Shown here: piece by piece, positions 9,001 to 12,000 of the stretch | Numbering within the stretch: position 1 is the stretch's first letter | Layout of the letters: each line of letters opens with the position of its first letter | Source: Escherichia phage PA52 | Sequence record: KP682392.1 | Length of the DNA stretch: 64,000 bases | Strand: one strand, 5' to 3' | Program-made: the position numbers

Positions 9001-12000
9001 GCTGGTTTGCGTTTGCATTGTAAGACCACTCGTGATGGGGTTGGCCTGTGTAGTTTGTCGGAGCTAATCGCCTCCTGACTTTGCAGGTTTGCGCGACGAG
9101 CTCTACGGCGAGAAGCTGCGGTGCCTTTAAATTCTGTTTTTCTGGACATAGATTCCTCCCGAATAAACTTTGGCGATGCAATCTCGAAGCTCCTCCTGAG
9201 ACGGTTGCTTCGGCATTGCATCCCACAGCTTATGTGGTTGGGTGATCTGGCTTTTCAGCCACGTAGTCGAGAGTCGACGTTGTTTAAAGAGCCTGCCAGT
9301 CTGTTCCATTTGGCTTCCAGCGTCCTGCTGATGGTTAAATAGTACGATATGTACTTCACTTGGTCAATACAATTTGTTCTAAAACGGGGCGTTTTTTTAC
9401 AACGCTTTGTATTTAATAGTATTGTTTTTTAGCGTGGGTGTATTGCCTCGGCGATGTAAGGAGAGATCAGAATTGCGTTGTTTAGTGAGTTGTATCTATT
9501 TATTTTCCAATAAATACAATTGGTTATGTGTTTTTTTGGGCGAGAGGAAAAGAAAACCCGGCATGGAGGCCGGGTTGATGATTAGCGGTGTGGCCTTGAG
9601 CGATAATGCTCACACACATGTTCAAGATTTCCATGCCTTATCCGTTCATAGGCATTCACATGAACTTCTCGATCGAATTGGTCATTCAAATTGTATGTAG
9701 ACATCTGTGTTTTCTCATATTGGCGGCAGCCCTACAACCGCTTGAAAAAATGTACCAGACGCGCTAAGGTTACATCGCAAATATTGTGTACCTTAACAAG
9801 GGCTCCTTTTGGAGGCTCTGGTTAAACAGCATCAATGTCGGACTGGGGAGTTGGACATTGTGCTGAATGCTTTTGCATTATTGAGGCCGAACGTAAACCT
9901 TCAGAATTGAAGAGATGCGTTCGGCTTCTTCGTTTGTGATATCGTTAGGAATGCCTTTAATCGTTACTGTAACCCCTGATTCAGGTCGAAGAACTACTGG
10001 AAGATCATAGGTATGAAGTGCATTAGCCTTGCCTTCGACTTTTGTTGGTTCGCCAGTCAAATCTTTTTCCTCACTGGATTCTTTGTCAATCGGAGTGTAT
10101 GGGATTTCTTCACCAGACTGGAAAGCTACAAACTTTTTGATTGCACTTTCCATGCGGCTTTTATATGCAGTAATGCTGCTGTCGCTAGGCTTCGGCTCAG
10201 TTGCGTTGATGTATCGCTCGGCAAGCTCATTCACATCAAGCTGAGTAACATCACCCATTTCCTCTTCTTGGACTACCGTTAAGAGGCGAGCGGATGAGTT
10301 TTTTAAATTTCGAGCGGTGGCCTCCTTCATTATGTTCAGCGACATAAGCTCTTCAAGGAAGTCCTTGAATGCCTGCACGCTAACGTTTGACTTTGCCATT
10401 TGCTCTCTCTCTAAGTTATTGACTCAGATCGAGTTTATCCAGGAATTGATTTGCATGCAAGACTCAAGTCTTGAGAATTTCCGTTCAAGATCCACTCTCA
10501 ATAAAAAAGGCCGCACCTCTGCGACCTTTCATCTCCTAAATCTCTTTTCTCTTACCTAAAGAAACAGCAGGCTGGGTCAGCCCTAACAACTTCAAGTGCA
10601 TCGGTCAGAGAAAGCTCCGTGCTATACAGGTGTTATTTCATATCTTTTTGCATCCAATAAATTTTCCATCTGTCCAGAGAGCGGATGCACTTGATTCTTG
10701 TTGATGGCAGGACGTTTTTTCACCTGCCTCACCCTGCCATACAGGACGCTGCTCACCGATATCTATCGTCCGGTCATTGATGTTATAGACAATATCCAGA
10801 TCATTACGGATATACTCAGATGGCCTTATGCTTTCAATGAATAGATGAACTTCTTTTTGACCGCTTGATACTCATGGCCATTAAACTCCATCTATCCTCT
10901 TTACCCAAACGTCTCTTCAGGCCATTGGCTGGCGATAACTTTCCCCACAACGGAACAACTCTCATTGCATGGGATCATTGGATATTGCGGGTTTAGTGGT
11001 TGTAGAAACACCTGACCGCTATCCCTGATCAGTTTCTTGAAGGTAAATTCATCACCACCAAGTCTGGCTATGCAGAAATCGCCGGGCTCAACAGCTTGCT
11101 CAGGGTCAACCAGAATTAACATCCCGTCAGGAAAACTAGGTTTGGAACCTGTTGGTGCGGTCATTGAGTTACCTTCAACCTCAAGCCAGAATGCAGAGTC
11201 ACTGGCTTTTTTGGTTGTGCTTACCAATCTCTCCGCATCACCTTTGGTAAAGGTTCTGAGTTCTGGAGAGAACATCCCAGCCTGAACATGAGAAAAAACA
11301 GGGTACTCATATTGTTTTTTAACTGGGGCCGATGAGTATTCGCCAACAGGTGAAAATGTCCCGTCGTGGTTGAATGATATGTTATCAATACCAAGGTATT
11401 TAAACACCACACCAATATCACTAAGAGATGGATGACGAGATCCGCGCAACCAGTGTCCAATTCCACCCTGCGTCATACCTAGCTCTTCGGCTAACTTCTC
11501 TTGAGTTATGCCGAGCTCTTTCATTCTGGATCTAGCCAGTTCATACCATTTCATTTTCATGTCCTTATTATTACGCTCTGTACTGGAACCATCCATGCAC
11601 AATGTGTATTTTTACTTGTATTTGAGAAGTACATATTGTATTTTTTTATTCGTGGTTACTATGGAGGGCATATGAGCAACCTACGAAAATATCGAGAGTC
11701 ACTGAATATCTCTCAAACAACACTTGCTAAGGCAGTTGGATGCACACAGGGAGCTATCGGACATTGGGAATCTGGTCGTCGCTTCCCAGACCTTAAAACA
11801 TGCCGTGCTCTTGTTGCGTGTCTAAACAAGTTAGGCGCAAAAGTAAGTCTTGATGACGTGTTCCCGCCGGAGCACAAAGCCGCTTAATAAGCGGAGCCGC
11901 TCTTTGTAACAACGGACATTCGTCCTACGTCGCTGAAAAGCGAGTCCCAAGATATCTGACCAACTAAGGCCATATGCGTTTCCACGCATACCTTTCAACT

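Follow-up and report, generated by a model that had tools for sequence, protein, structure and literature searches.

We have analysed a window of 64,000 nucleotides from Escherichia phage PA52 (sequence record KP682392.1; positions given below are those of this window unless another record is named), and we describe here the interval from 9548 to 10527, which lies between the cI repressor gene and OL/pL. Our best reading is that this interval is an autonomous moron, which moves horizontally between phages and is expressed while the prophage is repressed, and its products probably constitute a regulator-effector pair that the lysogen cannot lose. The cassette contains a predicted promoter with an operator-like palindrome, a gene for a 173-amino acid protein (ECs1184), a structured leader RNA and a gene for a 40-amino acid microprotein, and it is bracketed by 2 intrinsic terminators, designated here T1 and T2.

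The region from 9400 to 10950 is 100% identical in VT2-Sakai/Sp5 and in ~40 other Shiga toxin (Stx) phages, among them Stx2 phage 1717, phage 2851 and the PA-series Stx2 phages. The source prophage is Sp5 (VT2-Sakai), the Stx2 prophage of E. coli O157:H7, which occupies positions 1246154-1308861 of the RefSeq sequence of strain Sakai (NC_002695.2). Window position 1 corresponds to NC_002695.2 position 1246154 and is therefore the left end of Sp5; the 173-amino acid gene, ECs_1184, lies inside Sp5 at 1256031-1256552 of that record. We found the interval in 235 of 5426 complete E. coli genomes, nearly always with at least 99% identity.

T1 (10503-10527, minus strand; AGGUCGCAGAGGUGCGGCCUUUUUU) has a folding free energy (dG) of -15.9 kcal/mol and a z score of -4.9, and is followed by U6. 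It ends the cI transcription unit, it marks the left limit of homology to the cassette of Salmonella phage Oslo, and a conserved copy is present at each of the Oslo, Proteus, Serratia, Cronobacter and SH2026Stx1 loci. The right cassette boundary is T2 (9548-9576, minus strand; dG -14.3 kcal/mol, z -5.4), which also has a U-run after it. Homology to phage lambda positions 35708-35826, which we take to be the t_imm region just below rexB, begins at the T2 hairpin and runs leftward. An initial annotation of this DNA had listed 6 elements between cI and pL, all of which we found where it put them, the 2 terminators included; it had also placed the cassette in the rexAB slot, in the same orientation as cI, and had called its last terminator equivalent to t_imm, and the lambda homology leftward from T2 makes both of these labels literally correct. 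The cassette shares with lambda rexAB its position, its orientation, a t_imm-like terminator and expression in the prophage; the two differ in that there is no sequence or domain similarity between them. With a conserved promoter of its own and bracketing by T1 and T2, the cassette fits the definition of a moron in the sense of Juhala et al. (2000), as it does through its presence in some phages and absence from others and its expression in the prophage.

Transcription of the cassette runs in the cI direction, toward OL/pL and N. The predicted sigma-70-type promoter (10432-10460, minus strand) is composed of TTGCAT at 10460-10455, a 17-nt spacer and TAAACT at 10437-10432, with a predicted transcription start at ~10425-10429 and a 5' untranslated region, TCGATCTGAGTCAATAACTTAGAGAGA, that is conserved across homologues. 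It matches the consensus at 7 of 12 positions, and for this reason was absent from the output of a consensus scan. Nevertheless the promoter, which the initial annotation had described as buried in palindromes, is conserved: in 10 homologous loci both hexamers, the 17-nt spacing, the palindrome at the -35 hexamer and the 5' untranslated region are kept and the sequence of the spacer varies, which is the signature of a working promoter. The palindrome, CAAGACTTGAGTCTTG (CAAGACT-TG-AGTCTTG; 10473-10458), overlaps the -35 hexamer and has a third half-site, ATCTTGA, ~20 bp upstream of it. The sequence AAGAyTnnAGTCTTGC is conserved among homologues, and the palindrome is the sole perfect copy in the 64-kb window, the one other match having 2 mismatches and standing at chance level. 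The palindrome at 10458-10473 would be the binding site of ECs1184.

Two further features of the promoter region recur among homologues. GATC (Dam) sites cluster within and near the inverted repeats and just past the -10 hexamer in nearly all of them (for example at 10425-10500 of the window, and at 1300-1500 in each of loci L053 and L077), and many also have, ahead of the -35 hexamer, an A-tract similar to an UP element. Methylation-sensitive control of the cassette promoter is possible.

The gene for ECs1184, also known as Sp5 ORF23, occupies 9878-10399 on the minus strand, and the 173-codon reading frame drawn earlier at this position is confirmed. Its product had been described as soluble, with no recognizable transmembrane segment, signal peptide or catalytic motif; that description missed an integrase core-binding fold, which became apparent in an AlphaFold model built with 24 homologues (pLDDT 72). 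In this model, residues 1-100 form a core-binding (CB; SAM-like) domain of the tyrosine-recombinase type, with its four helices at residues 8-95, residues 102-127 form an acidic, disordered linker of variable sequence, and residues 130-165 form a domain of a beta-hairpin plus a helix, for which beta-beta-alpha arrangement we obtained no fold match. The predicted structure thus includes the N-terminal core-binding domain of a tyrosine recombinase or phage integrase. There is, however, no match to PF00589 and no C-terminal catalytic domain with the R-H-R-Y residues, the chain stopping at residue 173, and without a catalytic domain ECs1184 is not a recombinase. The model suggests instead a DNA-binding protein that consists of a stand-alone integrase core-binding domain and a small C-terminal domain. 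In this respect ECs1184 is unlike the SPbeta proteins MrpR/YopR and the phi3T protein SroF, whose chains of 313-320 amino acids keep the whole recombinase fold; ECs1184 has only a core-binding domain of ~100 residues, to which an unrelated beta-beta-alpha domain is joined, and identity to them is 9% or less.

Relatives of ECs1184 were found only in Enterobacterales (Escherichia, Salmonella, Cronobacter, Yersinia, Proteus, Providencia, Morganella and Serratia), and all are annotated as hypothetical. In agreement with the earlier statement, no cassette product matched RexA/B, SieB or a kinase, and PADLOC 2.0 gave no match at E <= 1 for the 173-amino acid protein, for the 40-amino acid protein or for the largest fragment of a pseudogene that is described below. 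The final 15 codons of the CB gene contain a hairpin, P0 (9886-9925, minus strand; GCCGAACG...CGUUCGGC; dG -20.6, z -5.7), which is retained in most homologues, in one of them through a double change from GAA/GUU to GAG/GCU at the cost of a Val-to-Ala substitution. This hairpin probably explains the unusually high nucleotide conservation at the 3' end of the CB gene.

The microprotein gene, of 40 codons, is at 9582-9704 on the minus strand (MSTYNLNDQFDREVHVNAYERIRHGNLEHVCEHYRSRPHR), and it belongs to the first of 3 families, alpha, beta and gamma, that are defined below. Its product is basic and rich in His and Cys. Among 7 alpha-family loci the ratio of nonsynonymous to synonymous substitution rates (dN/dS) was 0.05-0.18 with synonymous sites near saturation, and the 40-codon open reading frame (ORF) is a real gene under purifying selection. 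The initial annotation had offered this element as either an ORF or an RNA, and it had missed that the ORF is a conserved gene; by the dN/dS values and by a folding z score of -4.2 for the adjoining RNA of ~175 nt, the locus holds both. The protein matches phrog_21154, and a phmmer search against 1.84 billion representative proteins returned 11 other small proteins, which have in common the core KxVHVNAYxRxRxGxxEHVCxHYRSxP, together with 2 repeat-protein artefacts. No match was found in Pfam, NCBIfam, the PHROG functional categories or PADLOC, and the homologues have no function attached to them. Comparison by eye with YdaF/YdaG, which occupy a comparable slot in the Rac prophage, showed no evident similarity.

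We recovered 42 loci with distinct downstream sequences, from 8 enterobacterial genera, and in all 42 of them (2 hold only the last ~20 CB codons) observed the CB C-terminus, a structured spacer, a microprotein ORF and a terminator. The small ORF has 40-59 codons and starts 150-177 nt after the CB stop codon, with an intrinsic terminator after it; its start was mis-set by the automatic call in 2 loci, L073 and L084. The ORFs fall into the alpha family, which is the Sp5 type; a beta family, CxxC...FRPYxxDKNGKKxFPKNSRVFPIPVCGC, with a weak match to a treble-clef zinc finger; and a gamma family, ...RAKAGTPDSERKxLDAHxYGYKCWSFPVR. The spacers are of 3 sequence types, A, B and C, and the combinations seen are A-alpha, A-beta, B-beta, B-gamma, C-alpha and C-beta, where L041 and L042 are counted as type A and L011 as type C with an alpha ORF.

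In Salmonella phage vB_SosS_Oslo the stretch from T1 to T2 (window 10527-9575) is present at 86% identity and directly follows an unrelated cI of the c341 type. In every locus with enough flanking sequence that we inspected (Proteus, Morganella, Serratia, Cronobacter, Yersinia and phage SH2026Stx1) the CB gene is between a LexA/cI-type repressor gene and an N-type antiterminator gene, and the question raised earlier, whether these ORFs occur next to unrelated cI alleles in other prophages, can be answered in the affirmative for prophages of Salmonella, Cronobacter, Yersinia, Proteus, Morganella and Serratia.

The full-length CB gene was never seen without the RNA and microprotein unit (40 of 40 loci), and the unit does occur without the CB gene. 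In 3 phages it stands behind a gene pair for XRE and ImmA/IrrE proteins: in Klebsiella phages MK416022 and MK422450 this pair is followed by a spacer that we read as type C-like, with a pseudoknot, and by a beta-type ORF, and in E. coli phage Phi06_2987 by a different-looking spacer of ~155 nt and a gamma-type ORF. This arrangement fits a variable regulator with a constant effector. The spacers of these 3 loci (L086, 665-1845; L087, 1497-2650; L088, 1305-2550) measure ~155-180 nt, and the loci adjoin umuDC, dinI or an integrase gene. In a virome contig (L085; IMG/VR UViG_2703718791_000008, 37-1445), a candidate defence gene of the DUF6932/PDC-M63A type and a gene for a 309-amino acid protein replace the CB gene, of which the last ~20 codons remain, followed by a type-A RNA and an alpha ORF; this replacement suggests that the slot is a hotspot for cargo exchange. 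Within O157 itself, strain 9234 (L092) has an IS1203 element exactly at T1 and an intact cassette, and in strain NE92 (L091) recombination between 2 copies of IS1203 has removed everything from T1 to gam, that is, the cassette, OL/pL, N, cIII, kil and part of gam, with cI kept. The CB gene can thus be lost when everything downstream goes too.

The leader RNA of the window is of type A (9705-9877, ~175 nt, between the CB gene and the small ORF). In this RNA, all of it on the minus strand, we placed hairpin P1 at 9827-9865, helix P2 by pairing of 9817-9822 with 9754-9759, P2a at 9803-9814, P3 at 9765-9795, a U-tract at 9743-9748 and hairpin P4 at 9723-9741, ~20 nt upstream of the next start codon. 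A long-range helix, formed by AGCCCU (9799-9804) with AGGGCU (9728-9733) in the loop of P4, makes the structure a putative pseudoknot. Over 11 type-A sequences, 90.8% of the cells were paired, compared with 26-43% in controls with the pairing partners slid; RNAalifold predicted the AGCCCU/AGGGCU helix independently, and one compensatory change was seen in it, in L080. In Sp5, P2 is followed by the U-run ACAUUUUUUCAAG at 9753-9741, and a U-run follows P2 in most variants; together they may serve as an attenuator.

Our sampling is best for type B, of which we had 23 distinct sequences; the proteins encoded next to them show 33-73% identity to the window's. The layout that we propose for it has P1, a long hairpin P2-P2b-P3, and P4 just before the Shine-Dalgarno sequence; the loop of P4 would form a pseudoknot by pairing with the 5' side of the P2/P2b internal loop. 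In a MAFFT alignment 86.6% of the cells were paired, versus 35-46% with partners slid, and compensatory changes were observed at 21 pairs, versus 5-9 in the slid controls; none of 500 shuffles reached the observed value. A second count for type B gave 88.8% of cells paired, versus 35-45% in slid controls. We also realigned the sequences with a covariance model from which the pseudoknot was absent, and in the pseudoknot columns alone found 81.9% of cells paired (25-54% in controls) and 13 doubly changed cells (0-5 in controls). Elsewhere, variants of the pseudoknot could be recognized by eye as GGACAC/GUGUCC, GGUCUC/GAGACC, GGACUC/GAGUCC, UUACC/GGUAA, AAACCC/GGGUUU, AAAUCUA/UAGAUUU and AACCCA/UGGGUU. 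The conservation of this RNA and its pseudoknot had escaped the initial annotation.

Rfam 15 gave no match at E <= 1 in window positions 8500-12500 or in 8 homologous loci, and none of the 3 spacer types matches an Rfam family. We read the 3 types as one family from their shared layout and from the motifs TAGCGG and UCAAG, a judgement of our own that has no statistical backing. A covariance model of the 23 type-B sequences (R1) scored type C weakly (E 0.003-0.02) and did not match the type-A RNA of the window, whether or not the default filters were applied, and the single-family claim is therefore not proven.

One peculiarity of hairpin P1 (window 9827-9865, minus strand) is that it is reverse-complemented between relatives, as seen in L003, L018, L075 and L080. 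Its loop reads CCCC in Sp5, L012, L014, L017 and L040, and GGGG in Oslo, L018, L075 and L080; in some relatives the inner part only is flipped, and in L018 the whole hairpin. The inversion is a flip, at the DNA level, of a quasi-palindrome.

Published experiments bear on ECs1184 in 2 respects. Mondal et al. (Sci Rep 2016, PMC5155283) constructed in-frame, markerless deletions of Sp5 genes in MG1655 and could not obtain those of ORF23 (ECs1184) and ORF21 (ECs1180); they wrote that deletion of ECs1184 'appears to be lethal', found no conserved domains, and took the failure to delete it as an indication of a role in stable lysogeny. ECs1180, the only other Sp5 ORF that they failed to delete, is an 83-amino acid ORF downstream of N (window 8567-8818, minus strand) with no annotated function. 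Also, ECs1184 was recovered in the RNA-associated proteome of uninduced Sakai cultures at a false discovery rate of 0.065, with a crosslinking signal no stronger than that of the GFP control, and was judged 'not a strong RBP' (RNA-binding protein; Nucleic Acids Research 2025, PMC7618764). Since ECs1184 was recovered from uninduced Sakai, it is made in uninduced cells, and the expression in the lysogen that had been argued from the slot and the promoter is borne out. The initial annotation had further offered the cassette as a candidate for a previously undescribed system. This was too broad for the gene, which is known by its locus tag and by the one negative genetic result; it holds for the fold, the family architecture, the RNA and the microprotein families, no description of which was found in Rfam, Pfam, NCBIfam, PADLOC or the searchable literature.

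The interpretation that we favour, tentatively and at a little less than even confidence, is that the cassette is a lysogen-expressed regulator-effector moron with an addiction-like character. One transcript from the sigma-70 promoter would specify ECs1184, then the ~175-nt leader RNA, then the 40-residue protein. ECs1184 would bind the palindrome at its own promoter and hold the operon down, and the leader RNA would further limit synthesis of the microprotein, by means of an attenuator made of P2 and the U-tract, of the pseudoknot beside the ribosome-binding site, or of both. The microprotein would be a harmful effector, released on loss of control, and if it were freed in this manner we would have an explanation for why ECs1184 cannot be deleted alone. 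The loss of the CB gene in NE92, which took with it all that lies downstream, counts in favour of this model.

Several observations weigh against this interpretation. The RNA and microprotein unit persists without the CB gene in L085 and in the XRE-ImmA loci, so that ECs1184 cannot be the only antidote, and the CB C-terminal domain is constant across microprotein families, which argues against direct neutralization of one protein by the other. The microprotein is hydrophilic and matches no known toxin family, and its toxicity is something that we infer. The promoter fits the consensus poorly, as noted above, and we found no mapped transcription start for it. An automatic best-duplex search had no power for the pseudoknot (mean score 17.4 versus 15.8 for shuffled sequences), and a strand test of G-U against A-C gave 72 versus 61 for type B and a mild 17 versus 5 for type A. 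Finally, the failure to delete ECs1184 is a negative result with no stated cause, and deletion of the unrelated ECs1180 failed likewise.

Comparisons with known systems are instructive in this regard. The cassette resembles a type II toxin-antitoxin system in having a DNA-binding gene first and a small gene second, a single, palindromic promoter and the standing of a mobile accessory module, and in that the first gene is not deletable alone (PMC5155283). It differs from such systems, whose genes overlap or are coupled, in the spacer of ~175 nt between its genes, which is atypical for them and counts as a further point against the proposed mechanism, and in that its 40-amino acid protein belongs to no recognized toxin family. 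The other system to be considered is immI of phages P1 and P7, where c4 RNA is encoded ahead of the small icd gene on one transcript and pairs with the icd leader, ant follows, and loss of control is lethal. In common with immI, the cassette has a folded RNA upstream of its target, pairing with sequence that immediately precedes the ribosome-binding site for a small ORF, and a location in an immunity region; an upstream segment complementary to the leader of the small ORF is present as AGCCCU/AGGGCU, and the corresponding type-B helix covaries. Unlike immI, the cassette has no ant gene after it, and a gene for a DNA-binding protein precedes the RNA. The Rfam C4 model matched neither window positions 8500-12500 nor the 8 homologous loci, and the likeness to immI is for this reason one of analogy and not of membership.

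A fuller version of the proposal would make the cassette an addiction or abortive-infection module, in which a zinc-binding microprotein toxin is kept silent by two agents together, a DNA-binding protein derived from a recombinase and a leader RNA with a pseudoknot, and in which interchangeable microproteins (alpha, beta and gamma) and regulators (CB, or XRE with ImmA) have spread among the prophages of enterobacteria, the Stx2 phage of O157:H7 being one of them. In this complete form we regard the proposal as doubtful.

Among the other explanations, one that follows Mondal et al. would have ECs1184 as a second regulator for maintenance of lysogeny, which represses or insulates a lytic function of Sp5. 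Its target would be read-through at pL/N or an anti-repressor-like activity of the microprotein, its loss would derepress the prophage and kill the cell, and the RNA, like the small ORF, would belong to the switch and not to a toxin system. This explanation we consider somewhat unlikely, with an appreciable chance of being right. It accounts for the non-deletable gene in the terms of the authors who reported it (PMC5155283), transcription toward OL/pL and N means that derepression could read through T2, and NE92 lost the gene only along with pL, N, cIII and kil. However, the cassette moves among phages with unrelated cI, Cro and operators and so cannot depend on a particular immunity system, and the 64-kb prophage offers no second good copy of the palindrome at which such a regulator might act, the other match being the chance-level one with 2 mismatches. 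Furthermore, lambda has rexAB here instead, and 933W, which has stk in this slot, maintains lysogeny without ECs1184.

It is also conceivable, if unlikely, that the cassette is primarily an anti-phage exclusion or abortive-infection system, in line with the exclusion/defence module proposed in the initial annotation, and that the microprotein is an effector triggered by infection. The slot holds rexAB in lambda and other lysogen-expressed exclusion genes elsewhere, nun in HK022 and bstA in BTP1; in L085 a candidate defence gene (DUF6932/PDC-M63A) and its partner have replaced CB. Expression of the cassette in the lysogen (PMC7618764) points in the same direction, and an addiction-like architecture is compatible with abortive infection. 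On the other side, no product has a PADLOC match, and no enzymatic or sensor domain is present. Exclusion is compatible with the regulator-effector model, to which it adds a functional claim, and the slot and L085 make it plausible.

That the spacer acts mainly as a stand-alone small RNA from the 3' untranslated region of the CB gene, ending at P2/U-tract and regulating host or phage mRNAs in trans, with the microprotein as an unrelated neighbour, is improbable: the GC-rich P2 helix does precede a U-run in most variants, Sp5 encodes Hfq-dependent small RNAs elsewhere (PMC4104026) and ECs1184 is borderline in the RNA-associated proteome (PMC7618764), but the candidate list of Tree et al. from Hfq crosslinking and analysis of cDNA (Hfq-CRAC) has no cluster here, the nearest Sp5 cluster found being EcOnc20 at the cI 3' end, the covarying segment pairs with the loop of the hairpin that immediately precedes the small ORF, and spacer and small ORF occur together in 42 of 42 loci and also in loci without CB.

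We also compared the locus with the small RNAs reported for this prophage, none of which corresponds to it. AsxR, AgvB and EcOnc27 are located downstream of stx2 (window ~23726-23840): AsxR is at ~23790-23840 on the minus strand, the probe site for EcOnc27 is at 23726-23760 on the plus strand, and the two lie ~220-330 nt beyond stx2B, whose stop is at 23507, in agreement with their published positions. The Pas small RNAs are near late, lysis and structural genes. EcOnc20 (Tree et al. 2014; old Sakai coordinates 1255628-1255753), when placed with the offset derived from AsxR and EcOnc27 as anchors, falls at 10925-11050 on the minus strand, which is the coding 3' end of cI and not intergenic sequence.

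Upstream of T1, the cI transcription unit has as its last gene a pseudogene of the DUF3024 family (PF11225; 10552-10891, minus strand), which we delineated by translation in three frames, by tblastn and by nucleotide alignment to intact genes. It starts at 10891, 10 nt past the cI stop codon, with an AGAGGA Shine-Dalgarno sequence. Its frame lacks one base near 10853 and another near 10717, and a Trp codon near 10636 has become a stop. Over the 2 main aligned frame segments its amino acid identity to the intact gene of SH2026Stx1 is 81-85%; intact DUF3024 genes follow cI in Proteus and Morganella prophages and in phage SH2026Stx1, and the intact homologue matches Pfam PF11225. The initial annotation had the start and the separate Shine-Dalgarno sequence of this element right, and it described the rest as a frame of ~85 codons with one shift, where we find 113 codons, 2 frameshifts and a nonsense change. 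It had also counted the element as a member of the cassette; being upstream of T1, the pseudogene is instead part of the cI operon and outside the mobile cassette. Between cI/DUF3024 and the cassette promoter, unannotated ORFs of 141 amino acids in Yersinia (L014, 2348-2773) and 96 amino acids in Morganella (L019, 2475-2765) show further variability upstream of T1; neither has a Pfam match. At the other end, beyond T2, OL/pL is at ~9339-9420 and includes the pL promoter at 9367-9339 (TTGACC, 17-nt spacer, TACTAT).

In summary, the cassette presents an integrase core-binding domain that, by the model, stands alone and outside recombination, a conserved RNA with a pseudoknot and no Rfam match, and 3 strongly conserved microprotein families that most annotations have missed. 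The regulator-effector model offers a concrete explanation for the lethal-deletion result, for which there has been none. Within the Stx2 prophage of E. coli O157:H7 the cassette belongs to the immunity region, and since its main gene resisted deletion in one published study, it may affect how stably this toxin phage is kept.

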